Origin: Leptobacterium flavescens | GTDB lineage: Bacteria; Bacteroidota; Bacteroidia; Flavobacteriales; Flavobacteriaceae | Length of the DNA stretch: 64,000 nucleotides | Reading direction: 5' to 3' | NCBI RefSeq assembly: GCF_010671605.1 | Contig: NZ_JAABOO010000003.1 | Location: 311,993 to 375,992 of the forward strand | Shown: positions 7,172-64,000 of the stretch, piece after piece | How the letters are laid out: the number at the start of each line of letters is the position of its first letter | Numbering within the stretch: position 1 is the stretch's first letter | Made by a program: the position numbers and the translations under genes | The notes under the pieces: model-generated | What the model was told of the DNA's origin: nothing | The model's input: the letters and a program-made list of their open reading frames with translations, nothing else | The model's database searches: none

Positions 7172-8698
7172 ATGAGCTTAAAAAATTGCTATAAATGGTT
7201 GCCTCTTCTGTTTTTAGGTTTTGCCGCCTGTACTTCAGACGATGATGCAACAACACCGGTGGAACCGGAAGTTCCGATAACTTCCGGAAATGCAGATTTC
7301 TCTAACTATGTTTCCATAGGGAACTCCCTGACGGCAGGTTTTACAGACGGAGCCCTGTTCGTTGCGGGACAAACAAACTCTTTCCCGAATATCCTTTCAC
7401 AGCAATTTGCGATGGCAGGCGGAGGAGAGTTTAATATTCCTTTTACGAATGATAATCTGGGAGGTGCATTGTTAGGAGGAAATCAGATCCTTAATAACAG
7501 ATTGTTCTTTGACGGTGCCGGACCTGCGGTTTTACCAGGTAACCCGACTACCGAGATATCCAATATTCTAACCGGACCCTTTAACAATATGGGAGTACCC
7601 GGAGCCAAGAGTTTCCATATCGGATTACCGGGTTATGGAAATATTGCCGGTATTCAGGCAGGAACAGCTAACCCTTATTTTGTAAGGATGGCTTCTAGCC
7701 CGAATGCTACTATCCTGGCCGATGCCCTTGCGCAAAACCCGACATTCTTTACCCTGTGGGTTGGGAATAATGACGTACTTAGTTTTGCAACTTCAGGAGG
7801 TATCGGAGTGGATCAGACTGGAAATCCGAACCCTGCAACTTACGGGCCTAACGATATTACGGACCCGACAGCTTTTGCAGGTATTTTTACCGGACTTGTC
7901 GATGCGCTTACTGCAAATGGCGCCGGAGGTGCGGTAGCAAATATTCCGGATGTGAACATTATTCCGTTCTTTACTACGGTACCTCATAATCCTGTACCGT
8001 TAGATCAGGCTACGGTTACTCAGTTAACCACAGCGCTCTTAGGCCCTGTCGGACAGATCCTGGCCGGTTTGGGAGAAGGAGACAGGCTTGTGGCTCTGGA
8101 AGCTTCGGAGTCTAACCCTTTACTTATTGTTGATGAGTCCCTGACAAATTATTCAGCAGAGATCAGCGGTGCGTTACAACTGGGAGGTGTTTCTCCACAG
8201 GAAGCAGCACTTATAGGAAATCTTTTCGGTCAGGCAAGACATGCTACCGAGAACGACTTTATCCTGTTAACCACTTCTACGATCATCGGAGGAGAACAAG
8301 CAGGTATCCCTGCACCTTTAAATACGATAGGAGTAACCTATCCTCTTCAGGATGCTAATGTACTTACTGCAGACGAAGCAGCTATGATAGGAACAGCTGT
8401 AGATGCGTATAATGCAACCATTGCGGCTATAGCTCAGCAAAACGGACTGGCCATCGTAGATGCCAACAGTCTTTTACAGCAGGTTTTCACAACCGGGGTC
8501 CCTTACGAGAACCTGGTACTGAGATCTGATCTTGTTTTCGGAGGAGCTTTCGGACTGGATGGAGTACACCCAACATCGAGGGGATATGCCTTTATTGCAA
8601 ATGAATTTATGAGATCTATCAATGCAACCTATGGTTCTAATTTGCCTATGGTAACGCTGTCGGACTTCCCGACGCTTTTCCCGTTGGCATTGCCTTGA
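7172..8698 (+). CDS. SGNH/GDSL-family hydrolase lipoprotein
   Basis: Lipobox (AACTSDD). Block I GNSLTAG. Block V DGVHPT (DxxH). Immediately downstream of the TBDR. Confidence 0.55.
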   Translation: MSLKNCYKWLPLLFLGFAACTSDDDATTPVEPEVPITSGNADFSNYVSIGNSLTAGFTDGALFVAGQTNSFPNILSQQFAMAGGGEFNIPFTNDNLGGALLGGNQILNNRLFFDGAGPAVLPGNPTTEISNILTGPFNNMGVPGAKSFHIGLPGYGNIAGIQAGTANPYFVRMASSPNATILADALAQNPTFFTLWVGNNDVLSFATSGGIGVDQTGNPNPATYGPNDITDPTAFAGIFTGLVDALTANGAGGAVANIPDVNIIPFFTTVPHNPVPLDQATVTQLTTALLGPVGQILAGLGEGDRLVALEASESNPLLIVDESLTNYSAEISGALQLGGVSPQEAALIGNLFGQARHATENDFILLTTSTIIGGEQAGIPAPLNTIGVTYPLQDANVLTADEAAMIGTAVDAYNATIAAIAQQNGLAIVDANSLLQQVFTTGVPYENLVLRSDLVFGGAFGLDGVHPTSRGYAFIANEFMRSINATYGSNLPMVTLSDFPTLFPLALP

Positions 8699-8720
8699 TA
8701 AAGAAGATATAATTACTAAA

Positions 8721-8756
8721 AACCAGCACGGATCCGTGCTGGTTTTTTTGTTTTTA
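8721..8756 (+). terminator. Rho-independent terminator after the TBDR/SGNH operon
   Basis: ccagcacggatccgtgctgg hairpin followed by tttttttgttttt. Confidence 0.7.
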
Positions 8757-8927
8757 AGGGGCTGGAAATACCGTTTAATAAAGGGAAATAAAAATTAAGA
8801 AAAAAATCGATAAGAAGCTTATTAATTTTTCAATTAAAAACATATCTTTGCACCGCTAAAAAAGATCGTTTCGGATCAAAAGAAGCTTATAATTGTTTTA
8901 GCACATAAAAAACTAAACATTAAATAG

Positions 8928-10442
<1,515 letters not shown>

Positions 10443-14600: not shown

Positions 14601-15231
14601 TGATCATATTTTCCGGTGATGGCGGAACTGCCTGTGCCAGGAAAGGAGAATTTAAGAAGATGGCACAAAGCCAGTACAGGGTATAGATCGCTATGGCCGA
14701 AACATAAATGGTGAGTGCCTTTCTGCTTAGAATGGCGGTGGCAAATAAAAGAGCGGTCAGGATAAAGATATTCGGTACTATCTGAAACAACCAGATCCTG
14801 GCATAGTGCATAACGTTAAATGGCGCCAGGCGTTCCGGGTCGGCCAGAGGTGTATAGGTCCCGATAATATATCCCAGCAGGATAAGGCTAAAGACAAACA
14901 ATCCGACTGTAAAGACTCCGAGGAAGCGACTTAAGAAAAAGTTTCTCCTGCTGATCGATGTGCTGTAAATAATACCATCCAATCGGTACTGAGCATCACG
15001 TACGGCGGCCTGCACACAAAAGAACATAATAGCAAAGACCGAAGTCAGGCTCAACAGATTGACAAAATAAGAAACCTGATAAGGCGAATTGATATTCACG
15101 CTGCTGAGACCTCCGAATTGAAGGAGGGTAGCTCCCATAAAACCAAAGAGGAGAAAAGCGATGGAAAATATCAGAAAAGAAAGCTGTTTTGAATGATAAG
15201 CCCATTCAAATTTTAATAGTTTAAGGAACAT
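11653..15231 (-). CDS. Fusion protein: ABC-2-type permease (multi-TM) joined to an M1-family zinc aminopeptidase domain
   Basis: About 12 TM helices in the N-terminal 550 aa. C-terminal gluzincin motif HEVAHQWWGH…E. Immediately downstream of the ABC ATPase in the same orientation. Confidence 0.75.
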   Translation of the reverse strand: MFLKLLKFEWAYHSKQLSFLIFSIAFLLFGFMGATLLQFGGLSSVNINSPYQVSYFVNLLSLTSVFAIMFFCVQAAVRDAQYRLDGIIYSTSISRRNFFLSRFLGVFTVGLFVFSLILLGYIIGTYTPLADPERLAPFNVMHYARIWLFQIVPNIFILTALLFATAILSRKALTIYVSAIAIYTLYWLCAIFLNSPFLAQAVPPSPENMIIAALADPFGISAFFEQTQYWTPFQKNSQNLSFSGFFMWNRIIWISFALLLSWASYKIFSFRKLDRKAGKKEVFSSSKTEKTIYKPTPAFTSGNKFQWATLRTLIGLELKGISRSLPFIGILLIWIVIVASEIYTRINGGGDYNNDLYPTTDLLIWLIKDPLPLLSTILIIFYSGELAWKERTTNFNGIIDGTPTSSLAFFVSKFTALMLLPLMLIFLSILIAVGFQISKGYYEFEWTQYLFLFYHSGMRSLFYGCLALFIQSLAPNKYIGMFITGLLIVLMGSSLAAGIGIEHPMLQLGNFPRTTYTNMTGFGHYSKPFNQFALYWLSVALILAVLSFKLWKRGAISGLRFRWRRLRSKWTKTEKAILFSSLLLLLVSGGSVFYNTNLVNEYTTIDDRLDFSEAYERKYKKYEELEELFPVAMKTEVAMFPQKAEMVIKTDYILENKNENPVKTVLISEREPLRSVWLENARLVEKDSAFNTYLFELDRELLPGEQLKFRYEAFVNNDGFETRRDIVNNGSYILHQSFEPSLGYKRSWEISSDFERQKRGLSKREVDEVDSGHLQFEADNKIGKVLFETVVSTSGDQMAIAPGNLLRKWTENNRNYYHYKSDTPVSPLLGYFSAAYQLKKEIYKGISIELYYHPGHDFNIDRIMEVTKISLDYCTENFGKYPFDHLRIAEIPSHWPFGGMAMPGTISMVEDNLYLIDLRDPGAFDLVAKRTIHEVAHQWWGHVIYPKLTDGASIFVEVITKYTEAAVMEKIEGSGSLWQLSKNATQRYFSGRSFSSDPEPPLYLVGGESYLQYGKAYHVMQALKEMIGEAQLNVVLKELVDEYNGGTEFKVTSPDLLEKLYNITPQEKHSLIDDLFKRIMTYDLSVRSSSYKKLSNGRYELSLEFHTGKFETDESGKTARVSINNPIQIGAFMKHPSEMGIDDRPVYLKQHKFNKENSRIKIVVDQLPEYIVIDPFGAHPDTKQEDNVMRVE

Positions 15232-15242
15232 ATCAGTATGAT

Positions 15243-16121
15243 TTATGATGGGTTTTTTAATAATTTGGTAAAGTAAACGTCTTCCAGACCGGGAGCGACA
15301 AGGTCGAATCCGGCCTCTGGCTTTTCTTCAGCCAGAACGTGGATCTGTGTTTTTCCGGAGAACAAACGTGTGGAAATAAGTTTGAATGCATTTCTGTATG
15401 CAGGAAGATCTTCTTTGGCAATTACTTTATGCCATATTTTTCCCTTCAGGTCGTCTACCAGTTCGGATGGAACTCCCTTAGAGATGATATGCCCCTCCCC
15501 GAGGATAGCCATTTGGGTACAGAGGTCTCTCACATCTTCTACAATATGGGTGGAAAGGATGACAATAATATTTTCTCCTATCTCACTCAACAGATTGAGG
15601 AAACGGTTTCGCTCTTCAGGATCGAGGCCGGCCGTTGGTTCATCAACAATAATAAGTTTAGGATTGCCAAGCAGGGCCTGCGCAATACCGAAACGCTGTC
15701 TCATTCCTCCCGAAAAAGTATGTACCGCTTTTTTGCGGTATTGATAGAGATTGGTTTGATGAAGCAGGGCAATTACCTGCTCTTTTCGTTCTTTTTTATC
15801 TAAAATACCCTTTAGTATGGCAATGTGGTTTAACAGATCGTATGCCGCAATTTTAGGATATACGTTAAACTCCTGAGGCAGATAACCCAATACATTGCGT
15901 ATTTGCTGCGGATCTTTAATAATATCCTGATCATTAAAGAGCAATGCTCCTTCTGACGGTTCCTGAAGACCGGCAATGGTTCTCATAAGAGAGGATTTAC
16001 CTGCTCCGTTCGGACCCAGCAGACCGAACATTCCGTTGTCGATACGCAGGGAAATATTGTTCAGGGCTTTTATGCCGTTGGGATAGGTTTTGGACAGATT
16101 TCGAATTTCAAGTGTATTCAT
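15243..16121 (-). CDS. ABC transporter ATP-binding protein
   Basis: Walker A GPNGAGKS. Signature LSGGMRQR. Walker B IIVDEPTAGLD. Confidence 0.9.
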   Translation of the reverse strand: MNTLEIRNLSKTYPNGIKALNNISLRIDNGMFGLLGPNGAGKSSLMRTIAGLQEPSEGALLFNDQDIIKDPQQIRNVLGYLPQEFNVYPKIAAYDLLNHIAILKGILDKKERKEQVIALLHQTNLYQYRKKAVHTFSGGMRQRFGIAQALLGNPKLIIVDEPTAGLDPEERNRFLNLLSEIGENIIVILSTHIVEDVRDLCTQMAILGEGHIISKGVPSELVDDLKGKIWHKVIAKEDLPAYRNAFKLISTRLFSGKTQIHVLAEEKPEAGFDLVAPGLEDVYFTKLLKNPS

Positions 16122-16326: not shown

Positions 16327-17664
16327 ATGTTTTACAAATTGAAGAAATACGATTTTTTGGTTTACGGCTTTGCCCTTACCTATATCCTGAAGGTATATCT
16401 CCAGAAAATAGGGCTTATTCTCATCGATAAAGACGAACAGTTGTTTAATATAGCAGGCTTTGTTTTCTGGGGCTTTGTTTTTTCTGTGCTTATCTATTTT
16501 GTTTTGTATCACAAGGCAGAGACCTACTTCAGGTATGTGCTTTTAGGGCTTGCGGTAACCATTGGCGGCACGGTTCTTTCCGTTTATTTTAAAATGGAGA
16601 GGGCTTCTTTTTTCTTTATAGTCCTTTTTTGGGGCCTTATTTTCTTTCTGGGAGTCTCCTGGTATATGCACAGGTTTAAAAAGAAGAAACTCATTCCAAC
16701 ACTCTTAAAAAAGAAGGAACTTTTGGTAAAGATCGGTTTTTTGCTACTGGTCTTTATCGGTATCCTGATGTCGGAAGGATTGATAGGTATTCCCGACAAT
16801 CCGCTTACCTTTTCACTGCTGATCATTTTTTGTATCCTGGCGTTTAATATCCTCGCTCCGAAATTTTTTAACCGCTATAAGTTTTTTATCCTCGGGATCT
16901 ACGGCGGTCTCTTCCTGTTGTATTTCTACTCCCTGAGCAATAATGAATCGGCCTTACTGGTTACCAATGAAAAGGAGAGACAGGAATTCCTCAATATTGC
17001 CATGCTATTCCTTTTGCCGGTCCCGTTCTTCATTCTTTTCTGGGTTTATGAACAGTGGAAATGGTTCCGGAATATCAAAGCCGAGAAGACAAAAGCCGAA
17101 CTGGCACTGCTGAAAAGCCAGGTAAACCCGCATTTCTTTTTTAATACCCTGAACAACCTTTACGGTCTGGCCAAGAAGAAAGCTGATGAAACCCCCGATA
17201 TCATCCTGAAGCTATCCGAAATAATGAGGTATGTTATTTATAAGGGGCAGGAGCAGGAAGTACGCCTGGAAGAGGAACTCAACTATCTGGAGAACTATCT
17301 CGAACTACAGCAGATAAGGCATCATGAAAAAGTAGAGATTGTTTTTGACAAAAAGATCGCCGATAAGGAACTGAAGATCGCTCCCCTCCTTCTGATCGTA
17401 TTTCTGGAGAATGCCTTTAAACACGGAGTGGATTCCCTTATTAAAGGAGCCTATGTTCATGTAAAGCTGGAAGTAAGCGAAGATGAGCTTTTATTTGAAG
17501 TAGATAATAATTTCGATCCGGAAGCCAATAGCAAACCTGCCGGGATAGGCCTGGAGAATCTGCAAAAAAGACTGGAGATCATTTATGAAGACAGGCATCA
17601 GCTGGAGCTTAAAAAAGAAGACAATAGCTTTAAGGCCCGCTTAACTTTATTAAATTTATCCTGA
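16327..17664 (+). CDS. Sensor histidine kinase, LytS/YehU-like (His_kinase PF06580-type)
   Basis: Multi-TM N-terminus. NPHFFFNTLNNL H-box region. HATPase_c C-terminus. Confidence 0.75.
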   Translation: MFYKLKKYDFLVYGFALTYILKVYLQKIGLILIDKDEQLFNIAGFVFWGFVFSVLIYFVLYHKAETYFRYVLLGLAVTIGGTVLSVYFKMERASFFFIVLFWGLIFFLGVSWYMHRFKKKKLIPTLLKKKELLVKIGFLLLVFIGILMSEGLIGIPDNPLTFSLLIIFCILAFNILAPKFFNRYKFFILGIYGGLFLLYFYSLSNNESALLVTNEKERQEFLNIAMLFLLPVPFFILFWVYEQWKWFRNIKAEKTKAELALLKSQVNPHFFFNTLNNLYGLAKKKADETPDIILKLSEIMRYVIYKGQEQEVRLEEELNYLENYLELQQIRHHEKVEIVFDKKIADKELKIAPLLLIVFLENAFKHGVDSLIKGAYVHVKLEVSEDELLFEVDNNFDPEANSKPAGIGLENLQKRLEIIYEDRHQLELKKEDNSFKARLTLLNLS

Positions 17665-18365
17665 TGAAATATATTATTGTCGACGACGAGCCTATAGCTC
17701 ATGATATCATAGAAGAATATGCCGGAGAACTGGATGACATGGAATTGGTGGGCAAATGCTATAATGCGATAGAAGCCATCAGCCTGTTACAAAAAAAGGA
17801 GGTAGATCTGATATTCCTGGATATTGAGATGCCAAAACTAAAGGGACTCGATTTTCTCAGGACCCTGAGTAATCCTCCTCTGGTAGTCATTACTACGGCC
17901 TATTCGGAGTTTGCGGTAGAGAGCTATGAGTTAACAGTTACCGATTACCTGCTGAAGCCTTTTGGTTTTGATCGTTTCTTAAAAGCTTATACCAAAGTAA
18001 AGAAAGCAAAGGAACAGGCAGATGCGGCAGGGAAAAGCAGCCCGGTAAAGGAAGCAACTTCCAAAAGTGTTTTCTTAAAAGGAGATAAAGAGATCTATCA
18101 TATTAAACTCGACGATATCCTCTACCTGGAGAGCTATGGGAATTATGTAAAAGTGCATGTTGGAAAGGAGGTACTTCTTATTCATGAAACCCTGTCCAAT
18201 ATGGAAAGCACACTCCCCTCCGAACAGTTTTTAAGGGTTCACCGTTCATTTATGATCCAGATCTCCTGTATAGATCGCATCACCGGAAACCAGATCAAAA
18301 TAGGAGATGCCACTATTCCTATCGGAAGATCTTATAAGGCAATTGTGAATAACAGACTTTTTTAG
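17664..18365 (+). CDS. LytTR-family response regulator
   Basis: REC domain (IIVDDEP…, D at LFLDIEMP). C-terminal LytTR DNA-binding domain. Start overlaps the kinase stop. Confidence 0.85.
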   Translation: MKYIIVDDEPIAHDIIEEYAGELDDMELVGKCYNAIEAISLLQKKEVDLIFLDIEMPKLKGLDFLRTLSNPPLVVITTAYSEFAVESYELTVTDYLLKPFGFDRFLKAYTKVKKAKEQADAAGKSSPVKEATSKSVFLKGDKEIYHIKLDDILYLESYGNYVKVHVGKEVLLIHETLSNMESTLPSEQFLRVHRSFMIQISCIDRITGNQIKIGDATIPIGRSYKAIVNNRLF

Positions 18366-34854: not shown

Positions 34855-35652
34855 TTAAAGCTCATCCAGTAATTTTCCTGCTTCGGCATAATTAAAATTG
34901 GAGGGATCTTCCAGGATCTTTTTCAATACTTCTTCCGCTTTCTTTTTATTGTCCATTTTAAGGTATACCAGGGCCTTGAACCATTGTGCCTTGGAGCGGT
35001 CAAGAGCATCCGAATGCAGTAGCAGATCCAGTTCTCCTAAAGCTTTGTCGTAGCTGCCGGTCTGTAAATAGGACAGCCCGAGATAAAGATGTACGGCCGG
35101 ATCGGTTTCGGAAACAGTTTTTTTGTAGGCTTCAAAAAGATTGACCGCTTCGAAAAAATTGGAATCCCGAAAAGCTATAACCCCTCTGTTCAATTCATCC
35201 CCTGTTGCTCCCCGTTTAATTACCGAGGGAAGGTCGTCGGTACTGTAGTATTTTGCAAACAGTTCCTGCGGATTGCTCTCCTGCGTAAATATAAGTGCCA
35301 GGGAACTGATGATCAGAAGTCCTGCGATAGCAGCAGCCATCATAAAATACCTTCTTCTCCTGGCTTTTACAGCATCTTTCCTGTATTCATTTTGCACTTT
35401 GCGAAGCTTCTCTTCAACAGATCTTGCCTCATCACTCTCTAAAAAGCTCCGGAGATTTCCGGTATATTCATTTTCCGGGACCTCTTCCACAGAAGTGTTA
35501 TCGGTCAGATAAAGGTTAATTTCCCGGGCGAGTGTTACCTCCCTGAGGAGTTCTTCATTTTCCTCCATTTGCTTTTCAAAAAGCAGTGCTTCTTCCGGGG
35601 GCATGGTATTTCCCAGATATGCTTCTATTTTCATTTTCAGATCATCGTTCAT
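34855..35652 (-). CDS. Putative anti-sigma factor (single TM, periplasmic TPR-like domain)
   Basis: Overlaps the ECF sigma stop. The TM segment is MMAAAIAGLLIISSLALIF. C-terminal TPR-like helices. Confidence 0.45.
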   Translation of the reverse strand: MNDDLKMKIEAYLGNTMPPEEALLFEKQMEENEELLREVTLAREINLYLTDNTSVEEVPENEYTGNLRSFLESDEARSVEEKLRKVQNEYRKDAVKARRRRYFMMAAAIAGLLIISSLALIFTQESNPQELFAKYYSTDDLPSVIKRGATGDELNRGVIAFRDSNFFEAVNLFEAYKKTVSETDPAVHLYLGLSYLQTGSYDKALGELDLLLHSDALDRSKAQWFKALVYLKMDNKKKAEEVLKKILEDPSNFNYAEAGKLLDEL

Positions 35653-36218
35653 GATGTATATAAATTTTTATACCTGGGATCGGTTTTAATTAATTCCGTT
35701 AGCTTTTTTTTGCATTTATGAACCCTCTGGAATGCTGCATTTTCAGTAGCATAGGAGAATTTCTTCACTATGATATTGTAAGGGACTTTATTGAAATAGG
35801 CCTTTAACAATTTAGAGCAATTTTCTGATAAACGGTTGATCATTTCTTCAAATAATTCCCAGCGTTCCTGTTGGATAACAGCTGCCAGATGATTATCGTC
35901 TTTTTCTTTTAGTTCAAAAAACCCCTCATTTCTTATCTCTTTTTTTCTTTTATTGAGTTCTTTTAACCACAAATTCCTGCAGATCGTAAAAAAATAAGCC
36001 TCAAAAGAAGACTTTATCAACACTTCCTTTACTTTGGCCCGGCTGATCAGTTGAAACAGTCCGTTGTGAAAAACTTCTTCCGCATCGTTGGCCGTGCCTT
36101 TATTGTTCTTTACATAAGACAAAACTTTAGGGTACAGGCTGTCGTAAAGTAAGCGTATAGTCAATTCATCACCGTTCAAAAGTGCTTTGATAGTGGGATG
36201 CGTTGAGGAGGGCTCCAT
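35649..36218 (-). CDS. RNA polymerase ECF-type sigma-70 factor
   Basis: Sigma-70 region 2 (…FEAYFFTICRNLWLKE…) and region 4 HTH. 189 aa. Confidence 0.8.
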   Translation of the reverse strand: MEPSSTHPTIKALLNGDELTIRLLYDSLYPKVLSYVKNNKGTANDAEEVFHNGLFQLISRAKVKEVLIKSSFEAYFFTICRNLWLKELNKRKKEIRNEGFFELKEKDDNHLAAVIQQERWELFEEMINRLSENCSKLLKAYFNKVPYNIIVKKFSYATENAAFQRVHKCKKKLTELIKTDPRYKNLYTS

Positions 36219-36350
36219 AAATTTTTTATCTATTAAAGGGTAAGATTTAAAATTAACAATAACTAATAACTAAAGTACAGTTTTTAAATTTTTTTAGGTA
36301 AAATCCTTTAAAATTTAGAGATTTATAGTATTAACCATCAATTTTATTTT

Positions 36351-36716
36351 ATGAAAAAAAAGGTTTTAGCGCTCTTTTCGGCCATTCTGTTAATTGCGGG
36401 ATGCTCTGAAGAAGAGATAATTGAGCCGGTAGAAACGGTAAATGTAGAAACTTCTGTCCAGAGCCTGGAAGCAGAAAGAGGATTGCAGATAAATGGCCTG
36501 GGAGGGACCACTATCCAGATACACTATAATCACAGTCTGACGATAAGCGAGATCGAAGATATCCGGAGGGAGTATTTCCTGGCTTTTCCCTGCCTGGATA
36601 TGTGCATTCTTCAGCCTACCGATCCTTATCAGGATGTCTGGTGCCACGATTGTAAAGCCGGAGATGAAAATGAAGTACAACAGACGGTAGCCAATGATCC
36701 CAGATTAGGAGATTAA
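36351..36716 (+). CDS. Small lipoprotein with 4-Cys C-terminal segment
   Basis: Lipobox LIAGCSEEE. CLDMCILQ…WCHDCKAG. Confidence 0.4.
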   Translation: MKKKVLALFSAILLIAGCSEEEIIEPVETVNVETSVQSLEAERGLQINGLGGTTIQIHYNHSLTISEIEDIRREYFLAFPCLDMCILQPTDPYQDVWCHDCKAGDENEVQQTVANDPRLGD

Positions 36717-36744
36717 TACGAATAATTCCCATTTTAAAATATCA

Positions 36745-39504
36745 ATGAAAGACAGACAGGGTCACTCATATCGATTCATCAGGAACGCTTGCTGGGTGAT
36801 CCTGTTTTTTTCCGGTTCTCTTTTTTCCCAGGGAGTGGGGGAATTAAAACGAATTACAGCCGCAAAATTTTCAACGGAAGAAAAAATTGCCAAAATAGAT
36901 TCGCTGATCCTTCTGTACGAAAAGGAAAAAAATGATTCTTTGGAGTATGTATATGAAAGGTATGCGGATTGGTTGTATGATGTGAGAGGATTAAAGAGTG
37001 CCATCCCCTATTTAAATAAAACACTGGACCTTGCAACATCAAGGCCAGTTAAGGACAGTACGTTTATACAGAATAGTGCCTTGTTCCTGGCATTTTGCTA
37101 TAATATTAACAAGCAATATCACAAAAGTATTGCGGCCAGCAGGGAGGTACTTCTTATAAATGACAAGAATAGAGCTGCTGTAAGAACCTATGATCAGCTG
37201 GGTTTTGCTTATTCCAGGATCCCCGACTACTACAAATCCCTGGAGAATTATGAACTGTACGCTTCCCTGATCAGGGTTGACGAAAAAAGAATAAGATCCC
37301 TCAGAAAAGCTCACAAAAATATCATTGCCGTATGCCTGGATATCAATACAGCTGAGAGCTTCAGAAAGGGCTTGAAATATGCCATGACTGCCGATTCCCT
37401 TTCTTCCGTATATCCGATTGATTCTGCCACTCTTTATGAGACCAAACTAAACCTGGCAACACTGTATAATCAGTATGAAACACTGGATATCGGGAAGGCA
37501 TTCGGATATTATAATGAGGCCCTGGAGATCGCCAAAAAGGTAAAAGATACTTCCAAAATAAGGGATATTTATATGCTTATCGGGAATCTGTTTAACCAGA
37601 CCGAACCCGACAGATCCCTGGAATATCTGGAGAAAGCCCTGGTACTGGCCGAACCGGAAAAAGATCCGTTTAACAGCTACCAGATCTATTCCAATATCAG
37701 CTTTACCCACGGACTGAATGAGGAGTATGAAAAAAGCCTGGAATACACACATAAAAGCCTGGAGTATCTGATAGGAGATAACCTCAGGGATCATAAAAGC
37801 ATTAACCGTAACCTCTTTATAAATTCTGACTATAAAGAAAACCTCCTCAATGCATTACCCAAGCTGGGGGAGACCTATCTTAAGTATTATGAAAAAACCG
37901 GAGATCCGGAATTCCTGGATAAGAGTATACATTATTTTAAAGAGACCGATTATGTGATCGATCTGCTGAAAATAAACAGCAGGGAATTCAGATCCCGCCT
38001 CTTCTGGCGCAAATTAAGCACAGATATTTACGGGAAAGCTATCAGGGCCTGTTATTTGAAAGGAAATATTGAGGATACTTTTTACTTTATGGAGAAAAAC
38101 AAGGCACTCCTGCTTCAGGAGGATATAAATACTCAGCAATTCAAAAAGTCCCTGGAGTTACCCGACTCGATCATCCGACGGGAAGAAACCCTGAGAAGAA
38201 AATTATTCGGGATAGAAAACGCCTTAAAAGAAACAAAAGAAGTAACTGTGCTCGATTCTCTTAAAAAAGAACTGATCGACCGCAAAAGAGAACTTTCTAT
38301 CCTTCAGGACAGCATAGGCCCTAAGGAAGGCGTTGCAGGCCTGGAACCGATTATTTTGGACCTGGATGCTGTAAAGAAAAAAATAAAGGAAGATGAGGTG
38401 GTATTGGAGTATCATATATCTATTGATGACGGATACGGAATATACACCAACAGGGAGAAAGGGTATTTGCTGATGATCACCCAAAGTGAAACACGGCTCT
38501 TTGAGATCCCGGACCTTCCTTCTTTAAAAGAGGAAATTACCTCCCTGCTGAGGTATTTTGAAAGCCCCTTCCGGACCAATGGGGAGATATCCGATTTTAC
38601 TGCTCTGTCAAACCGGGTCTTTAAACGCCTGCTCCCATCGGAAGAGATCCGCCTAAGCATTAAAAACAAAAAGCTGACGATTGTACCAGATAGTTATCTG
38701 TCTCTCCTGCCTTTTGAAGCGCTTTCGGTTTCGGAAGATAAGCTGTCTTATCTGATCCGGGATTGTGATATTCACTATTTGTATTCAAATTCGTTTCTCG
38801 AAGGAATGGAAAGGTCGAAACATGTAGAAAATAATTTTCTGGGAGTGGCTCCTTCTGATTTTAATGATAAGGAACTGTTACCCCTCCAGAATAACAAACA
38901 GGAACTTTTAAGCCTGGAGCAATATTACAGGGGAAGATCACTGATAAGCGGGGAAGCTTCCAAAGAGAACTTTCTGGAAGCCCTGTCCGGTTCCGGGATC
39001 ATTCACCTTGCAACCCATGCCAATGCAGAGGAATCGTCTGATCCGTGGATCGCTTTTAATGATGAAAAATTAAAGCTGGAAGAATTATACCTCACTGCAA
39101 ATAATGCTTCTTTAGTGGTGCTGAGCGGATGTAATACCTCATTAGGGAAACTGGAAACCGGAGAAGGGGTGATGAGCCTGGCCCGCGGATTCTTTTATTC
39201 GGGCTCCCGCAGCGTAATTTCAAGCTTGTGGAGTATAGACGATAAATCGACTTCCTTTATAGTTGATGAGTTTTACAGGAATACAAGTTCAGGCCAGTCC
39301 AAATCTCAGGCATTACGCAATGCCAAATTAAAATACCTGGACACCTACAGCCATTCGGAAGCATCTCCTCATTACTGGGCATCTCTTATTCTTTTGGGAG
39401 AGGACGACCTTTTAAAAGGAACACCTTTTAACTGGATACCATATCTGCTGATAGCGGCTCTCCTTCTGATCTTTTTTATAGCTTTCAGGTACTTCCGGAG
39501 GTAA
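36745..39504 (+). CDS. TPR-repeat protein with CHAT (caspase-like, clan CD) domain and C-terminal TM anchor
   Basis: Signal/TM at the N-terminus, many TPR-like helices. CHAT His-Cys dyad context IIHLATHA… and VVLSGCNTSLG. C-terminal helix WIPYLLIAALLLIFFIAF. Confidence 0.75.
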   Translation: MKDRQGHSYRFIRNACWVILFFSGSLFSQGVGELKRITAAKFSTEEKIAKIDSLILLYEKEKNDSLEYVYERYADWLYDVRGLKSAIPYLNKTLDLATSRPVKDSTFIQNSALFLAFCYNINKQYHKSIAASREVLLINDKNRAAVRTYDQLGFAYSRIPDYYKSLENYELYASLIRVDEKRIRSLRKAHKNIIAVCLDINTAESFRKGLKYAMTADSLSSVYPIDSATLYETKLNLATLYNQYETLDIGKAFGYYNEALEIAKKVKDTSKIRDIYMLIGNLFNQTEPDRSLEYLEKALVLAEPEKDPFNSYQIYSNISFTHGLNEEYEKSLEYTHKSLEYLIGDNLRDHKSINRNLFINSDYKENLLNALPKLGETYLKYYEKTGDPEFLDKSIHYFKETDYVIDLLKINSREFRSRLFWRKLSTDIYGKAIRACYLKGNIEDTFYFMEKNKALLLQEDINTQQFKKSLELPDSIIRREETLRRKLFGIENALKETKEVTVLDSLKKELIDRKRELSILQDSIGPKEGVAGLEPIILDLDAVKKKIKEDEVVLEYHISIDDGYGIYTNREKGYLLMITQSETRLFEIPDLPSLKEEITSLLRYFESPFRTNGEISDFTALSNRVFKRLLPSEEIRLSIKNKKLTIVPDSYLSLLPFEALSVSEDKLSYLIRDCDIHYLYSNSFLEGMERSKHVENNFLGVAPSDFNDKELLPLQNNKQELLSLEQYYRGRSLISGEASKENFLEALSGSGIIHLATHANAEESSDPWIAFNDEKLKLEELYLTANNASLVVLSGCNTSLGKLETGEGVMSLARGFFYSGSRSVISSLWSIDDKSTSFIVDEFYRNTSSGQSKSQALRNAKLKYLDTYSHSEASPHYWASLILLGEDDLLKGTPFNWIPYLLIAALLLIFFIAFRYFRR

Positions 39505-39609
39505 TTGCCTTTTTCAAATATCTGCCGGGTCGAAAAAAATATCCTTTTTTTTAAAAAACAGGGTAAGAAATCGGTTTTCAGGGAACAATGAAGTATAAAG
39601 CCTGGAAAT

Positions 39610-41193
39610 ATGAACGAACTCATCCTGCAATTACTTCACAGATCCCATGTATTTCACATAGATAAAAACGATCTGGAACTTCAGTTGATCTCTCACTCTG
39701 CGTACCCCAGCCTGAAAGCGGTAACCGATACTCTCGATTATTTTGGAATAGAAAATATAGCAGCAAATGTTCCGGTAGATGCCCTGGATCAGCTGCCGGA
39801 GAATTTCCTGGCGCTTATAGATGAAGAAGGCGAGACGGAACTGGTATTGGTCAAAAGAAAAAAAACAGATATCCACCTGAAGACCGGAGCCGGAAAAAAA
39901 GTAAAAATGCCGGCCCGGGAATTTGTAAACAAATGGACAGGAACCATCATTGCCGTTGAAAAAGAAGAGAAAAAAGAAAAGGATGCTGTTTTAAAGCAAA
40001 TAGATCTGAAGCTGGTATTCGCAGGATTTGCGGCTTTAACCGTGTTACTGACTATTACCCTGAATGGAGAGATCGTCCGGGCATTATATGTGCTGCTGGC
40101 TTTTCTCGGACTTGGGGTAAGCTATTTTACGGTGAAGAGCGACCTGGGTATAGAAGACAGATTAGTGACCAGGGTGTGTACTGCCATTTCCGGAAAGGGA
40201 GAAGGTTGTAAAGGGGTTATTAACTCTCGTGAAGGCAAACTGTTCAACGCGGTTGGCCTGAGCGATATATCGGTAATATATTTTGCCGGTATCATGGTGG
40301 TCCAGGCAATTGCAGGATTTGACAAAGCTTTCTTCAGCTTACTGTCTTTATGCGCTTTACCGTTTATTGCCTTTTCTCTCTATCTGCAGGCTTTTAAATT
40401 AAAACAATGGTGTTCTTTATGCATAGTAATATCCTCAGTATTGATCTCCCAGTTTGTCCTCCTGTCATTTGGTTCTGCAAACTGGGATCTTTCTTTGAAA
40501 TACCTTTTTAATGCAGGTCTGATCTTTCTTATGGTAGCGGGCGGATGGTATTTGCTGAAAAACCTATGGAAAGACAGGGTTCAGTACAGGGCTACTCTTA
40601 AGGAATTTTACACTTTTAAAAGAAACGGAGACCTTTTTCTTTCTGCCTTAAAAAGCAGGGAGCCGATGACGCAAAATGCACTGGAAAGCCATCACGGACT
40701 TCTTTTTGGCCATCCGAAGGCATCGATCAGGATAACGGCAATTACCAATCCGCTTTGCGGTTTCTGTGAAGAACCTTTTAAAGTATATAGCGGATTATTA
40801 AAAGATCAACCGGAAGAAATACAGCTCCATCTTATTTTCAATGTTCCCGACAATGAGGAGAATAAAGCTACTCAGATCGGATTGAAGATCCTCTCCCTTT
40901 ACGAACAGAACAGGGCCAAGGCTTTTGAAGCTCTGGAGAAGTGGTTTTACAACCGGGATATCGATGCCTGGCTGAAGATCTATGAAAATATCAATATTAG
41001 CCCTCAGGCCCGGGAAATGGCAGAAAAACAGCGACAATGGTGTGCGGACCAGGCCATTAATTATACCCCGGAAACCATTGTTAACTCCTACTACTTTCCT
41101 AAAAGGCAGTATAAAATAGAAGACCTCCGGTTTTTTACCGAAAACCTCAGGGAGCTCAATGTAGAAAGCAGGAAAAGCGGTACTGCTGTCTGA
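39610..41193 (+). CDS. Three-domain protein: N-terminal peptidase-C39-like domain (catalytic Cys to Ser), VKOR-family membrane core, C-terminal thioredoxin/DsbA-like domain
   Basis: N-terminal LQLISHSAYPSLKAVTDTLDYFGI aligns to the C39 QxDxxDCGxACL…YG motif with Ser at the Cys position. VKOR loop Cys pair VCTAISGKGEGC. TM CxxC WCSLC. Trx-fold CxxC NPLCGFCEE. Confidence 0.75.
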   Translation: MNELILQLLHRSHVFHIDKNDLELQLISHSAYPSLKAVTDTLDYFGIENIAANVPVDALDQLPENFLALIDEEGETELVLVKRKKTDIHLKTGAGKKVKMPAREFVNKWTGTIIAVEKEEKKEKDAVLKQIDLKLVFAGFAALTVLLTITLNGEIVRALYVLLAFLGLGVSYFTVKSDLGIEDRLVTRVCTAISGKGEGCKGVINSREGKLFNAVGLSDISVIYFAGIMVVQAIAGFDKAFFSLLSLCALPFIAFSLYLQAFKLKQWCSLCIVISSVLISQFVLLSFGSANWDLSLKYLFNAGLIFLMVAGGWYLLKNLWKDRVQYRATLKEFYTFKRNGDLFLSALKSREPMTQNALESHHGLLFGHPKASIRITAITNPLCGFCEEPFKVYSGLLKDQPEEIQLHLIFNVPDNEENKATQIGLKILSLYEQNRAKAFEALEKWFYNRDIDAWLKIYENINISPQAREMAEKQRQWCADQAINYTPETIVNSYYFPKRQYKIEDLRFFTENLRELNVESRKSGTAV

Positions 41194-41282
41194 AAAGAAG
41201 GATAAAATAACCTGCGCAGGGAAGACACAAGTCCCAAGTGTCTATAAATGTTTGGGAACCGATTAATCTTTAAACTTTAATT

Positions 41283-41465
41283 ATGTTAAAAAACATTTTA
41301 AAACTGGAAGGAACTCAGGAATTGGGTAAAAACGAACAGCGTCAAATCAGTGGTGGAGTGTCCGGCGGGCCGATTTACTGCGACTCCGATGCAGATTGTG
41401 CTATTGTATGCGGAAAGTGCGTAGGCTTCGGGATTTGCCTTCATGCTGTACCTGCCTGTGCTTAA
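41283..41465 (+). CDS. Double-glycine-leader precursor peptide, 6-Cys core (bacteriocin/RiPP-like)
   Basis: Leader MLKNILKLEGTQELGKNEQRQISGG fits L(-12) E(-8) I(-4) G(-2) G(-1). Core VSGGPIYCDSDADCAIVCGKCVGFGICLHAVPACA. Confidence 0.6.
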   Translation: MLKNILKLEGTQELGKNEQRQISGGVSGGPIYCDSDADCAIVCGKCVGFGICLHAVPACA

Positions 41466-41565
41466 ATAAATGGTTAAGGGAACAGACAACCTCAATAGTT
41501 TATTGGGGTTGTTTGTATTGATTTTACTCGATCACTTCAGATAAGCTAATTCTAAATTCAACGAT

Positions 41566-41748
41566 ATGGTAAAAGCAATTTTAAGTTTTGCTGAGGAACT
41601 CGGCAAAGAACAACAAAAAAGTATTATAGGGGGCGGGAACACATATACGGAGCGGCAATGTGCCACGCATAGTGATTGCCCTCCGGGTTACTGCTGTAAT
41701 GACCCCAGAACGGGCATATGTGAGCCATCTGGCGGTGCATGCAGGTAA
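41566..41748 (+). CDS. Double-glycine-leader precursor peptide, 6-Cys core
   Basis: Leader …FAEELGKEQQKSIIGG. Core GNTYTERQCATHSDCPPGYCCNDPRTGICEPSGGACR. Confidence 0.55.
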   Translation: MVKAILSFAEELGKEQQKSIIGGGNTYTERQCATHSDCPPGYCCNDPRTGICEPSGGACR

Positions 41749-41815
41749 AAGACCAGACACAAACCCCGGGTGTCTTTAAATGTTCGGGGAATAGCTAATT
41801 TAAAATTCAAACATC

Positions 41816-42043
41816 ATGTTAAAAAACATTTTAAATGTAAAAGGAGTTCAGCAACTCAGCAAAGATGAGCAAAGAGCCATCGGAGGTGGGATGCTTGGAG
41901 TACAGTGTAACACTTTAAGCCAGTGCTCTCTTAATTGCAACGGAAGTACCGAAGAGTGTGTTGCAATAAGTATTCCTACAGGCGGAGGCCTGATAGAGCA
42001 CGTCGTATGTTACGAATGTGTAAGTACAATTAACCACCAGTAA
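41816..42043 (+). CDS. Double-glycine-leader precursor peptide, 6-Cys core
   Basis: Leader MLKNILNVKGVQQLSKDEQRAIGGG (LSxxE…I.GG consensus). Core MLGVQCNTLSQCSLNCNGSTEECVAISIPTGGGLIEHVVCYECVSTINHQ. Confidence 0.6.
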   Translation: MLKNILNVKGVQQLSKDEQRAIGGGMLGVQCNTLSQCSLNCNGSTEECVAISIPTGGGLIEHVVCYECVSTINHQ

Positions 42044-42080
42044 TGGTAAACCGGGCCTGAAGATATTCGGGCCTGTTTTT

Positions 42081-60530: not shown

Positions 60531-61196
60531 TCAGATCAATCCCATATCCTTTATGATGGATACCAGGTGGGTAGAATTCCTGGCTTTAAAATGGATCTTT
60601 AATTTGTTAAGACGTTTTTCTATGGTACTGGTACTGTTGGGATATTCTCCCTTCTTTTTAAGATAATCGCCTATTTCTTCCTGGCGAAAACCATCGGAAA
60701 GCAGTTTAACCAGGCGGATGTCATAAGGAGAGATCTCTACCACATTTTTTTTGGTCAAGGCATCGGCAACTTCCGAAGAAATGTATTTTTTATGATTATA
60801 AACATCTACGACAGCATTTTTTAGTTCTTCAGACCCCTTCCGGCCTTTACATACATAAGCGTCGATCTGTAATTCATCAAAAAGCTTCCGGATCTTCTGA
60901 GGCCGGTCTTCTACCGAAAAGATAATAACTTTTAAATCCGGACTTTCCTCTTTTAAGGCTTTGATAAGTTCTTCCCCCGAAGGGTATTTTTGTTCGCGAT
61001 GGTCCTGTTTAAAGGAAAGATCACTAATAAGCAGTTCAAAAGGAGATCCGTCCAATTCTGCCCTTTTAACCTTTATATACGCATCGTCACAGTACTGGGC
61101 AAAAACCGGTTCGGGCATCCCGAGTTCATTAAAAACAGAGGCTACTCCCCGGTTAATATTCTCCAAATCTTCAGCAACCAATACTTTTTTAAACAT
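60531..61196 (-). CDS. LuxR/NarL-family response regulator
   Basis: REC domain (VLVAEDL…, LLISDLSF Asp). C-terminal GerE-type HTH. Confidence 0.85.
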   Translation of the reverse strand: MFKKVLVAEDLENINRGVASVFNELGMPEPVFAQYCDDAYIKVKRAELDGSPFELLISDLSFKQDHREQKYPSGEELIKALKEESPDLKVIIFSVEDRPQKIRKLFDELQIDAYVCKGRKGSEELKNAVVDVYNHKKYISSEVADALTKKNVVEISPYDIRLVKLLSDGFRQEEIGDYLKKKGEYPNSTSTIEKRLNKLKIHFKARNSTHLVSIIKDMGLI

Positions 61197-61212
61197 ATAC
61201 TATTACTTTTAA

Positions 61213-63291
61213 TTAAACAGAAAATCTGATGTTAGCCTTAAATCCTTTTTCGGCTATAGTATCAAAAGTAATGCTTCCTTTTATTGCCCGGATACGGTTT
61301 TCCGCATTCTGCAATCCGTTTCCGTTTTCTATGGTTATTCCTGTAATTCCCTTTCCGTTATCTACATAGTGAATATGCATTTTGGAGTCTTCTTTTTTAA
61401 AGCTCAGTACCACCAGGCTGGCCTGGCTGTGTTTTTTCATATTTACCATCAGCTCCTGCAGAACCCGGTACACTTCCATCTTTTTATGTTCTGCTATAGC
61501 TTCCCAGCTTTCGGGTTCCAACCCGTTTATAACAACTGTTACCCCTTCCGACCCATAGGAGGAAAGCATTTCCTTAAGCTGAGGCACAAAGTATTTTCCG
61601 GTTTCTATGGCATTGGTCTCCTTAGAGATATCCCGGGTACGCTGATAGATATTTTCCAGTTTATCAAGGACTTCTTCGGTTCCTTCCTGTTTATCGGATT
61701 CCGGATGCTGTAAACGGGTCATCACTCCGTAAACATCATTGGCCAGCTCGTCATGTAATCTTTTAGCCAGTTTTGCTTCGGTTTCATACACTTTTTTGAT
61801 CTTTTCTTTCTTATGACGAGTAGTTATTATGAAATAAAGAAAGATAAAAGATATTAAGACCAGGATTCCTATCGAGCTAATAAAATTGGATTTTCTTCCC
61901 TCTATTTCATTTGCAAGAGCTAATTCGAGATTATCTCCATTTAGCTTTAAAATTTCTTTTTCCTTTTCCTCTGTTTCAAATCGTATTTTGGCGAATTGAT
62001 CAACAGAGCTTCTTTGCTCAAAAGTCAGACTATCATTTAAGTGCTTGTATCTTGCGGTAATCAAGATTAAATTTTCTTTTAAATCAATTAAATAACCCAG
62101 TGCTTCTTTCTCAGCTTCTGGGCTGTTAATTTTTTTACTCAATTCATGAGCTATTTGGGCATGTTTAATTGCTTTGGTTCTTTGGTTAGATGTTAAATAA
62201 AATTTGAAAAGATGAATATTGCTAGCGAATTGACCTGTATAATCGTTTAATTTTTTTCTTATTTCTAAGGCTTCTAACATTTCAATTTCCCCTTCCGGAA
62301 TTTCTAGCTTCCCTTTTGCATAACCTAAATTGTCAAGGTACCTGGCTTTTTTATCCAAGTTTTTTAAAAGGGATATTTTAGGGTGCTTTAATATCTCTTG
62401 GAGTAGATCAATTGCTAGATAATATCTTTCTTGTCCAATATAAATTAAAGCTCTTGTGTTCGAATAAATTGCAAGATTAATTGATATAGTGTCCTTCACA
62501 GTCTTAATTGCCATATTGTTCCATTTAAGTGCTTCTTCATAATTCTTTAGTTCTTTGGAAGAAACAGAAATGGTATGATACAGATTGCCAATAAATTCAT
62601 TATTGTCAATGTTTTTCAGAAACTTTAAAGCGTCTGTGGTTGATTTTTCACTTCCATAAAAATCGCCTCTCTTTTTCTGAATATTTGCCATATTCTGTAA
62701 GCACTTTGCAACATACAAACTGTCTTTTAAAAGCTCATAATAATGCTTTGCGCTATTGTAGTATTTAAATGACTGGAATTGCTCACTGGATTGATAATTG
62801 AGCCCCAATTTGTACAATGCACTTGCTATATTTACTGTGTCATCCACAAACTCAGCATGCTTCAAAAGCTCTAGAGAAGATTGTATAGCAGATTGATAGT
62901 CTTTCTTGTTTCTTTGGTACCTACTTAACCTGGAATAAGCTTGAATTATATATTGAGTATCTTTCTTTTTTGTTGAAATATTCAACAGTTGATGAGAGTA
63001 TTTAAGAGCACTATCATATTGCTTACGTATCCCAAAAAGATATGCCTTGTAATATAGGTTTTTTAACACTAAAGAATCTAGAGAATAATTTTTAGATATA
63101 GATAATGCGGTGTCAATATTCTTGAGACGCTCTATTTTGGAAAGACTTTTATCATTAGCTGAATCAAAGTAACTTTGAACATCTGTAATCACATCATGAA
63201 TAGTCTCCAGTTTTTGTGGAGAATTAGCTTTGTCGCATGAAAGAACAGTACAAAGAATAAGAAAGGAGGATAAAAATAAAAGTTTTTTCAT
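61213..63291 (-). CDS. TPR-repeat sensor histidine kinase (HisKA_3 / HATPase_c)
   Basis: Signal peptide. About 400 aa of periplasmic TPRs. TM (ISSIGILVLISFIFLYFIITT). H-box RLHDELANDVYG. ATPase domain. Confidence 0.8.
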   Translation of the reverse strand: MKKLLFLSSFLILCTVLSCDKANSPQKLETIHDVITDVQSYFDSANDKSLSKIERLKNIDTALSISKNYSLDSLVLKNLYYKAYLFGIRKQYDSALKYSHQLLNISTKKKDTQYIIQAYSRLSRYQRNKKDYQSAIQSSLELLKHAEFVDDTVNIASALYKLGLNYQSSEQFQSFKYYNSAKHYYELLKDSLYVAKCLQNMANIQKKRGDFYGSEKSTTDALKFLKNIDNNEFIGNLYHTISVSSKELKNYEEALKWNNMAIKTVKDTISINLAIYSNTRALIYIGQERYYLAIDLLQEILKHPKISLLKNLDKKARYLDNLGYAKGKLEIPEGEIEMLEALEIRKKLNDYTGQFASNIHLFKFYLTSNQRTKAIKHAQIAHELSKKINSPEAEKEALGYLIDLKENLILITARYKHLNDSLTFEQRSSVDQFAKIRFETEEKEKEILKLNGDNLELALANEIEGRKSNFISSIGILVLISFIFLYFIITTRHKKEKIKKVYETEAKLAKRLHDELANDVYGVMTRLQHPESDKQEGTEEVLDKLENIYQRTRDISKETNAIETGKYFVPQLKEMLSSYGSEGVTVVINGLEPESWEAIAEHKKMEVYRVLQELMVNMKKHSQASLVVLSFKKEDSKMHIHYVDNGKGITGITIENGNGLQNAENRIRAIKGSITFDTIAEKGFKANIRFSV

Positions 63292-63538: not shown

Positions 63539-64000
63539 GATTTATGATTTAAAAATTGAACAATGGAGTTGCTGCCCGGGCATTGGCCCGGGATCTGTTT
63601 TTTGTTTTCAGCAACCCGTTAAAGGGGGAGTACTCCTTGTTTTGGGAAGTAGAAATCCGATACGGTAGCTTTGGGTTACTTCCCGTTTGACCTTCGGCCA
63701 GCCGCATTACGGATTTCCGTATTGATTACTAATGGTATTATGCTTTATTTGCGATTCAACCACTTCATCAATCTTGGATCAAAGTAAATCATGAGGTGAT
63801 GGACAATTGCAGACAGAATTTGTACAAGATTTTCCAAAAACTGTCCATCGAAATTGTCTAAAGAATGTCTGTAAATTGTCCGGGCTTATTTTTAATTTTA
63901 AAGCATATAATCTGAGGAATTTATGGTAGGAAAATTGCTGAGTGACGCATTTAAAAAAGCGAAAAAGCAGAGTGGTAATAGCTCTGATCATGGAGTGGCA

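Follow-up and report, generated by a model that had tools for sequence, protein, structure and literature searches.

A predicted leader-recognition domain on a VKOR–DsbA-like membrane protein, and a sigma factor module with a CHAT protein, at a double-glycine peptide locus of Leptobacterium flavescens

A 64-kb stretch of the Leptobacterium flavescens (Flavobacteriaceae) genome, here called the window and numbered from its first nucleotide, encodes three peptides with double-glycine (GG) leaders directly downstream of a membrane protein that combines VKOR and DsbA-like domains. How are these leaders recognized, and what removes them? No C39-ABC exporter (peptidase-containing ATP-binding cassette transporter, PCAT) or HlyD was found in the window, by a six-frame motif scan or with profiles of the cis-encoded PCATs and HlyDs of related loci, and no active processing protease of the C39 type is encoded in cis within the 64 kb. 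The only match to the profiles was the single ABC ATPase of the window (15243-16121), the partner of an ABC-2 membrane::Peptidase_M1 fusion (11653-15231, Pfam). A preliminary description of the locus had named this as the only ABC system, which the scan and Pfam bear out, and had speculated that the leader may be removed in trans or by an adjacent protein with tetratricopeptide repeats (TPR) and a CHAT domain. The comparison reported here gives a different answer: what is encoded in cis is, by its sequence, a domain of the leader-recognition type and not an active processing protease, the missing cis exporter is the rule in this family, and the CHAT protein is no substitute for one.

The leader-recognition-type domain forms the N terminus of the VKOR fusion (gene at 39610-41193, + strand; product identical to GWK08_13790 of L. 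flavescens). Residues 6 to 120 match Pfam Peptidase_C39 (PF03412) at 24.3 bits against a curated cutoff of 22, and Pfam, Foldseek, and hhalign place the domain at residues 1 to 120 (39610-39969, +). An hhalign comparison with the C39 domains of PCATs from related loci gave 77% probability (E = 2e-5), a profile of the fusion family picked PCAT1 entries from the solved structures, and PCAT1 was also among the Foldseek matches. The domain retains the C39 fold and the motif FxxxWTG...E, which it shares with PCAT1, ComA, and LagD, and a further motif, PSxKxITDTLDYFGIEN, is strongly conserved in the fusion family. The earlier statement that no C39 is present in cis holds for a PCAT in the 64 kb but had overlooked this domain. 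The domain is, on sequence criteria, catalytically dead, because residues 1 to 130 of the fusion contain no cysteine, the catalytic histidine of C39 aligns to Glu77, and the catalytic aspartate aligns to Lys/Thr; the domain is cysteine-free in 51 of 63 homologs, and the histidine column contains no histidine in any of the 63. An alignment of its segment “YPS” with the catalytic “DCG” was dropped, as hhalign places this segment on the second helix of C39, and the absence of a catalytic cysteine stands after the realignment. Instead of the transmembrane (TM) domain and ATPase of an ABC transporter, an extra helix and the VKOR and DsbA-like domains come next. HlyB-type exporters carry a C39-like domain without catalytic residues that binds substrate rather than cutting it, and we liken the domain in the window to that of HlyB. 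It probably grips the peptide leader during disulfide formation.

The remainder of the fusion has the features of a disulfide-forming enzyme. The extra TM helix (residues 133 to 152) precedes the VKOR core (residues 155 to 287; Pfam VKOR PF07884, 46.9 bits, cutoff 27.5), which is followed by TM5 (residues 296 to 318) and the DsbA-like domain (about residues 350 to 520). The four VKOR cysteines, Cys190 and Cys200 in the loop and Cys268 and Cys271 in the CXXC motif, are invariant in 63 homologs, as are Cys383 of the DsbA-like CGFC motif and Thr486-Pro487 (cis-Pro); Cys386 of that motif is kept in at least 90%. An AlphaFold model (pLDDT 87.5) has six membrane helices, and Foldseek searches with it matched ScsC, BdbD, and DsbA at E values of about 1e-5 to 1e-6. 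The family comprises 2,333 clusters at 50% identity, and the top 150 clusters are all about 525 amino acids long except for shorter, probably partial, sequences. Searched as a single sequence against the PDB, the VKOR protein returned one chance thioredoxin match only, and the fragment of residues 236 to 345 matched nothing there; a literature search on VKOR with C39 or bacteriocin gave nothing relevant and no paper describing the fusion family. The Synechococcus VKOR-thioredoxin fusion and BdbB/BdbA of the sublancin operon are quinone-linked or dedicated peptide oxidoreductases to which the fusion can be likened; unlike them, it has an N-terminal domain of the substrate-recognition type, a sixth helix, and possibly an inverted orientation. 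The fusion would show how a general disulfide machine is made substrate specific by borrowing the leader-recognition domain of an exporter.

Where the domain would meet a leader depends on how the protein sits in the membrane. AlphaFold and hydropathy give six helices in 63 of 63 fusion homologs, that is, one extra helix before the four-helix VKOR core, plus TM5. Since this number is even, the C39-like domain should lie on the same side as all of the redox cysteines, an arrangement that makes sense for a substrate-recruiting domain. Membrane-flanking lysines and arginines (K/R) average 11.0 on this side versus 0.16 on the other in the 63 homologs, with the three opposite-side loops contributing just that 0.16 per protein. 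The first helix follows a K/R-rich linker (2.9 K/R in 13 residues), and the N-terminal 130 residues contain no signal peptide. In PCATs, the C39 domain is cytoplasmic, and cleavage of GG leaders takes place at the cytoplasmic face. The charge bias, the lack of a signal peptide, and the cytoplasmic location of GG leaders and C39 domains favor a model in which the fusion faces inward. The bias in the core loops is weak evidence because a solved VKOR-like protein, with a K/R-rich TM1-TM2 loop and a K/R-free TM2-TM3 loop, is similarly biased. We suggest tentatively, with a confidence just short of even, that the fusion is an inward-facing bacterial VKOR whose cytoplasmic C39-like domain grips the GG leader while three disulfides are installed, before a PCAT cleaves and exports the peptide. 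The extra N-terminal helix would invert the enzyme, so that its dead C39 domain and its DsbA-like domain, like the VKOR cysteines, lie in the cytoplasm. If this is true, Bacteria would gain their first inward-facing VKOR, ribosomal peptides would have a cytoplasmic disulfide synthase guided by the leader, and the presumed site of disulfide formation in secreted peptides would change.

Related loci were sampled from two directions. For the VKOR fusion, 80 genome loci were fetched and annotated by clustering and profile searches, 61 of them with at least 8 kb on both sides; for CHAT, 79 metagenome loci were fetched, 27 of them with at least 4 kb on both sides. What stays constant in the VKOR-sampled loci is the fusion gene together with one to six peptide genes, and GG-leader peptides lie within 4 kb of the fusion in 51 of the 61 loci. 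A PCAT with intact Gln/Cys/His motifs and an HlyD are encoded in cis in 12 loci, and the other 49 retain the fusion and peptides with no PCAT within 8 to 10 kb. The missing cis exporter is the rule, and since a PCAT is in cis in so few loci, export in trans would be normal for this family. Leader removal and export by a PCAT in trans is plausible for the window as well. The closest relative, locus L001 (46% identity), has the gene order of the window followed directly downstream by PCAT and HlyD genes; its PCAT has more than 8,000 homologs at E values of ≤1e-100, and Flavobacteriaceae very commonly encode PCATs of this type. For genome mining, this means that a missing C39-ABC exporter beside GG-leader peptides is normal in this family and is no evidence for an alternative protease.

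The distribution of CHAT is different. CHAT is found in 8 of the 61 related VKOR-peptide loci and is absent from 53, and it coexists with a catalytically intact PCAT in 4 of the 80 (L001, L006, L020, and L030). In the CHAT-sampled loci, a sigma factor and an anti-sigma factor are encoded within 6 kb in 27 of 27, a VKOR fusion in 3, and a PCAT in 10; where both VKOR and PCAT are lacking, the genes downstream of CHAT include those for proteins secreted by the type IX secretion system, one of them an M12 protease. The CHAT gene is in this sense unlinked from the fusion in related genomes, which the preliminary description had named as refuting its proposal, and constantly linked to the sigma pair. 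The proposal that CHAT removes the leader is not supported by these counts, and from the comparison of sequenced loci we conclude that CHAT is not the leader peptidase.

What, then, does the CHAT protein do? The preliminary description had correctly described an extracytoplasmic function (ECF) sigma/anti-sigma pair, a small 4-Cys lipoprotein, and the TPR-CHAT protein 105 bp before VKOR, a gap that is exactly 105 nt. The ECF sigma (35649-36218, −) matches Sigma70_r2 at 29.1 bits (cutoff, 24) and TIGR02937 at 48.1 bits (cutoff, 42.9), and its gene overlaps that of its anti-sigma partner (34855-35652, −) by 4 nt. The anti-sigma consists of an N-terminal cytoplasmic region without cysteine, one TM helix (residues 102 to 122, 35287-35349), and a periplasmic TPR domain (of the TPR matches in Pfam, TPR_2 reaches its cutoff, with 28.3 bits against 27); it matches the anti-sigma model NF052375 of NCBIfam below its cutoff, and in the related loci it adjoins ECF sigma and CHAT throughout. 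A juxtamembrane motif, YYxxxDLPSxxxR(G/S), at residues 135 to 148 (35209-35250) is present in 15 of 15 homologs with an invariant arginine and is a candidate recognition or cleavage site. The CHAT protein (36745-39504, +; Pfam CHAT PF12770, 181.5 bits) begins with a signal peptide, continues with TPR repeats and a CHAT domain, and is anchored by a C-terminal TM helix (residues 896 to 914, 39430-39486) that is followed by the short cytoplasmic tail RYFRR. The His-Cys dyad noted earlier was located at His758 (39016) and Cys796 (39130), in motifs (HLATHA and LSGCNT) that are invariant in 17 of 17 homologs. Since every CHAT homolog has the signal peptide, the C-terminal TM helix, and the K/R tail, the TPR-CHAT body is predicted to be periplasmic, on the same side as the TPR domain of the anti-sigma.

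Among PDB sequences, DdvA (8rot) matched the CHAT domain best. DdvA is an anti-sigma with a fused periplasmic TPR-CHAT that has been proposed to be its own site-1 protease ahead of RseP (PMC11506125). The CHAT protein is best read as the periplasmic signaling protease of a split DdvA-like anti-sigma system, and we infer that it would cleave the anti-sigma. The lipoprotein (36351-36716, +; lipobox Cys18 and four further cysteines) is probably cotranscribed with CHAT. An hhalign comparison (97.3%, E = 2e-11) relates it to the pro-region at the N terminus of S8 subtilase lipoproteins of about 450 amino acids, and such proteases (Pfam S8) fill the lipoprotein slot in other loci with the sigma/anti-sigma/CHAT triad (L103 at 8489-9730 and 11 others). 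This kinship makes a protease relay conceivable.

The preliminary description had also suggested that the ECF sigma controls the locus, and the distribution of a promoter-like motif supports this. In triad loci, the VKOR gene is preceded by the motif GGTAA[GC]-N14-17-[GT]AAC, as is the small gene in front of CHAT. The motif is always oriented toward the gene it precedes and ends about 5 to 50 nt from its start, or 88 nt for the lipoprotein of the window. It precedes 12 of 16 VKOR copies in sigma/anti-sigma/CHAT loci versus 0 of 68 elsewhere (Fisher P = 1.6e-11), and a sense copy lies 5′ of the lipoprotein-CHAT unit in 29 of 67 CHAT genes versus about 3 expected from the overall density. Seven matches fall in the window (1.5 expected). 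One of these, GGTAAGATTTAAAATTAACAATAAC (36239-36263, +), points toward lipoprotein-CHAT from upstream of 36351, where the preliminary description had advised looking for such a motif, and another, GGTAAGAAATCGGTTTTCAGGGAAC (39562-39586, +), lies 24 nt 5′ of the VKOR start codon in sense orientation. The identity of the −35 variant (G or C) follows two sigma clades, with the nearest neighbor agreeing in 23 of 23 cases and sigma identity of 0.60 within versus 0.47 between clades; the discriminating residues include position 163 (F versus R), taken to lie in region 4. Four Dokdonia loci (L004, L006, L007, and L054) contain two complete paralogous modules side by side, from sigma to peptides, one with GGTAAC and the other with GGTAAG, each matching its sigma clade. 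The sigma of the window belongs to the clade with GGTAAG promoters and would be expected to recognize this motif. Taken together, the comparison of loci provides good evidence for transcription of two units by the sigma, lipoprotein-CHAT and VKOR-peptide.

Other promoter candidates were discarded. CTTACCC 5′ of the ECF gene could have been an ECF promoter for autoregulation, but this reading was dropped because copies on the VKOR side show the reverse orientation, toward lipoprotein-CHAT; the 7-mer is also not enriched in the window (9 versus 7 expected). GGGAAC, found 23 nt before three start codons and considered as an ECF −35 box, turned out to be the 3′ strand of a pseudoknot at two peptide genes and the second box of the motif at VKOR. 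A generic sigma-70 scan of the window stayed at the level of shuffled sequence (18 versus 15.2) with a model that does not suit Bacteroidota.

Overall, we consider it rather probable that the locus combines a sigma/CHAT signaling module with a cargo operon that contains a leader-gripping oxidase and relies on an exporter in trans. The signaling module would comprise the ECF sigma, the single-pass anti-sigma with its periplasmic TPR domain, the lipoprotein, and the membrane-tethered periplasmic TPR-CHAT protein. An envelope signal would activate CHAT, which would clip the anti-sigma on its periplasmic side, perhaps at the conserved DLPSxxxR-G, or inactivate it otherwise; clipping would permit intramembrane proteolysis and release of the sigma. 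The released sigma would transcribe two units from GGGTAAG-N15-(G/T)AAC, lipoprotein-CHAT as feedback and the cargo operon, a step with comparative support. The cargo operon would supply the three 6-Cys GG-leader peptides and a dedicated disulfide-forming membrane enzyme, whose dead C39-like domain would bind the GG leader and hold the precursors next to the VKOR/DsbA-like redox cysteines, with electrons passing to menaquinone. A canonical C39-ABC exporter and HlyD, presumably encoded elsewhere in the genome, would then remove the leader and export the peptides.

Several points weigh against parts of this model. By sequence, the C39-like domain matches solved C39 domains weakly (E of about 0.02 to 0.05), and its binding of a leader is deduced from homology only. 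That the motif works as a promoter and that CHAT is active on a given substrate are likewise deductions; four triad loci of the Aquimarina type (L058, L066, L071, and L077) have no motif before VKOR, and the motif on the lipoprotein side in the window, 88 nt from the start codon, is weak in its second box (TAAC). No PCAT named Leptobacterium was among the best 120 of the more than 8,000 matches to the L001 PCAT in a collection of 5.8 billion proteins, so among the matches listed there is no L. flavescens exporter, and the peptides may have none. An outward orientation of the fusion would put the C39-like domain in the periplasm, where no leader should remain after export by a PCAT. For DdvA itself, CHAT-mediated cleavage has not been demonstrated (PMC11506125).

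The alternatives bear on each of these steps. The fusion may be a canonical, outward-facing VKOR with all of its soluble domains in the periplasm, where the C39-like domain would bind the mature peptide, a partner, or some other ligand that is not a leader. We regard this as a serious possibility that stops a little short of an even chance. Most VKORs face outward, and inward-facing ones are known only for a few crenarchaeal paralogs (PMC13486548); among solved structures, the DsbA-like domain is closest to ScsC and the Salmonella thioredoxin-like protein 4gxz, which are periplasmic, and the K/R pattern shared with the solved VKOR-like protein weakens the charge argument. An outward orientation is harder to square with an N terminus that lacks a signal peptide and leads through a K/R-rich linker into the first helix, with opposite-side loops almost free of K/R, and with the cytoplasmic location of PCAT C39 domains and leader removal. 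A second alternative keeps CHAT in the sigma module but not as the cleaver of the anti-sigma: it could be a TPR sensor or scaffold, or its substrate could be the lipoprotein or another periplasmic protein that relays the signal. Either the propeptide-like lipoprotein or a full S8 protease with that pro-region always lies between the sigma and CHAT genes, with the same motif, and the dyad of DdvA is in a resting state, with dyad mutants behaving like the wild type in the absence of a signal (PMC11506125). This role nevertheless appears unlikely, as the invariant dyad argues for catalysis and the anti-sigma juxtamembrane motif is as strongly conserved, with its invariant arginine, as a recognition or cleavage site would be.

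The remaining alternatives concern the leader and the exporter. If the CHAT protein removed the leader, as the preliminary description had speculated, leader-bearing peptides would reach the periplasm and the membrane-anchored protease would stand in for a C39-ABC peptidase. The intact dyad, the predicted periplasmic location, and the lack of an active C39 peptidase within 64 kb are compatible with this reading, and an outward-facing fusion would have a periplasmic domain of the leader-binding type and so require leader-bearing peptides there. The absence of CHAT from most VKOR-peptide loci, its presence alongside intact PCATs, and its tie to the sigma pair, often with no peptides nearby, argue against this reading; in addition, the GG leader is hydrophilic and is not a Sec signal, which leaves no apparent periplasmic route with the leader on, and we know of no clan CD protease that cleaves after Gly-Gly. 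We judge it highly improbable. The window could alternatively be an exporter-less remnant that has lost its PCAT and HlyD, with peptides made but not secreted, or with the whole locus decaying. L001 has the same gene order and then PCAT and HlyD, whereas the peptide genes of the window abut recX, and no L. flavescens PCAT was among the homologs listed. Yet none of the eight genes is disrupted, peptide A shares its conserved 6-Cys scaffold with L001, a distant exporter is normal given the 49 loci that retain fusion and peptides with no PCAT nearby, and PCATs of this type abound in the family, and we consider such a remnant distinctly unlikely.

The split CHAT module that we favor resembles DdvS/DdvA in combining an ECF sigma with an anti-sigma that crosses the membrane once and with a periplasmic TPR-CHAT that contains a His-Cys dyad, and it would likewise switch on an adjacent “weapon” locus. 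Whereas CHAT is fused to the anti-sigma in DdvA, the two are distinct proteins in the window: the CHAT gene runs divergently from the sigma/anti-sigma pair, and its product brings its own signal peptide and C-terminal anchor. The anti-sigma is limited to a small TPR domain and lacks a zinc-binding Cys motif, and there is an additional lipoprotein whose gene is probably cotranscribed with CHAT. The cargo of DdvA is CBASS/CRISPR, and that of loci like the window is bacteriocin-type peptides or secreted proteases. DdvA-like anti-sigmas have been reported only in Myxococcota and one Comamonas species (PMC11506125), and the phylum here is Bacteroidota. DdvA is the only characterized TPR-CHAT anti-sigma system, with a narrow reported range and a cleavage step that is a proposal. 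A widespread split system in Bacteroidota would be more tractable for testing CHAT-driven sigma release because CHAT and anti-sigma are separate, the promoter motif is recognizable, a candidate cleavage motif exists, and the cargo is defined. Craspase, the type III-E CRISPR complex of gRAMP and TPR-CHAT (Csx29), shares with the window a TPR-CHAT protease and targets putative anti-sigma factors (as summarized in PMC11506125); it is cytoplasmic and RNA guided, unlike the CHAT described here, which is predicted to be periplasmic, and the window contains no CRISPR components.

The cargo operon can be compared with the bacteroidetocins (class IIf, Bacteroidales). Their loci combine the gene for a GG peptide with those for a PCAT, which serves for export, and for a thiol oxidoreductase on which full activity depends (PMC6671954). 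In both cases, the cysteines of the GG-leader peptides are even in number and a thiol oxidoreductase is dedicated to the locus. In bacteroidetocin loci, a PCAT and a protein with five TM helices (5-TM) are always in cis; neither is seen in the window, where no 5-TM protein of this type lies between 34.8 and 42.1 kb. The peptides of the window have six cysteines and a 25-residue leader, and the architecture of the bacteroidetocin oxidoreductase is not described in PMC6671954.

Peptides A (41283-41465), B (41566-41748), and C (41816-42043) are all encoded on the + strand, and each has a 6-Cys core; peptide A has the leader MLKNILKLEGTQELGKNEQRQISGG (VSGG). The three peptides and the lipoprotein matched no Pfam or NCBIfam family above cutoff. 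Across related loci, the leader consensus MLKNILNLxGAQxLSKxEQKxINGG is 25 residues long and strongly conserved, and the cores are hypervariable, mostly with four or six cysteines. About 25 to 35 nt 5′ of almost every such peptide gene, we found an RNA element that consists of a short hairpin and an H-type pseudoknot (AGACAC-AAA-CTGTGA-GTGTCT-nTAAATGT-TCACAG), with 67 instances in 39 loci (L001 to L105), whatever the type of regulator. On 44 distinct copies, 90.9% of cells are paired, versus 34 to 51% with the partners slid. Compensatory changes occur in both stems, and five of six pairs of stem S2, which was not used in selecting the sequences, are altered on both sides. The element matched no Rfam 15 family at E ≤ 1 and is a candidate new cis-regulatory or processing RNA.

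In the window, copy 1 (41199-41264, +) forms the leader of peptide gene A, with S1 AGACAC/GTGTCT and S2 TCCCAA/TTGGGA, and copy 2 (41737-41796, +; S2 CCCCGG/TCGGGG) precedes peptide gene C; gene B has no full element. A weak covariance-model match at 63786-63891 (+; E = 0.28), in which the S1 loop carries a 43-nt insertion, is probably due to chance and was set aside; the open reading frame that follows it runs off the window and is not GG-leader-like. A terminator-like hairpin (41482-41516, +) lies between peptides A and B and could attenuate read-through into peptides B and C. Peptide C is followed by a terminator-like hairpin with a T-run (42052-42075, +) and then by recX on the opposite strand.

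The surroundings of the fusion vary from locus to locus. The fusion and peptides occupy one chromosomal spot, after purH-mreBCD-PBP2-rodA and an endonuclease gene, in 43 of the 61 loci and about 50 of the 80, and this spot looks like an insertion hotspot. In three metagenome loci (L083, L085, and L102), the triad occupies the same spot without fusion or peptides. The triad recurs beside VKOR-peptide loci in several genera in varied order and orientation, and the regulator slot of the 61 loci contains the triad in 8, a histidine kinase with a LytTR regulator in 9, a TPR-histidine kinase in 7, and TPR-AraC in 4. The window itself has two further regulator pairs: a LytS-type histidine kinase and a LytTR regulator beside the ABC-2::M1 system (16327-18365, checked with Pfam), and, at 60531-63291, a response-regulator-like gene next to one for a 692-amino-acid protein that looks by eye like a TPR-containing histidine kinase. 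In other genera, regulators of these types are found beside VKOR-peptide loci.

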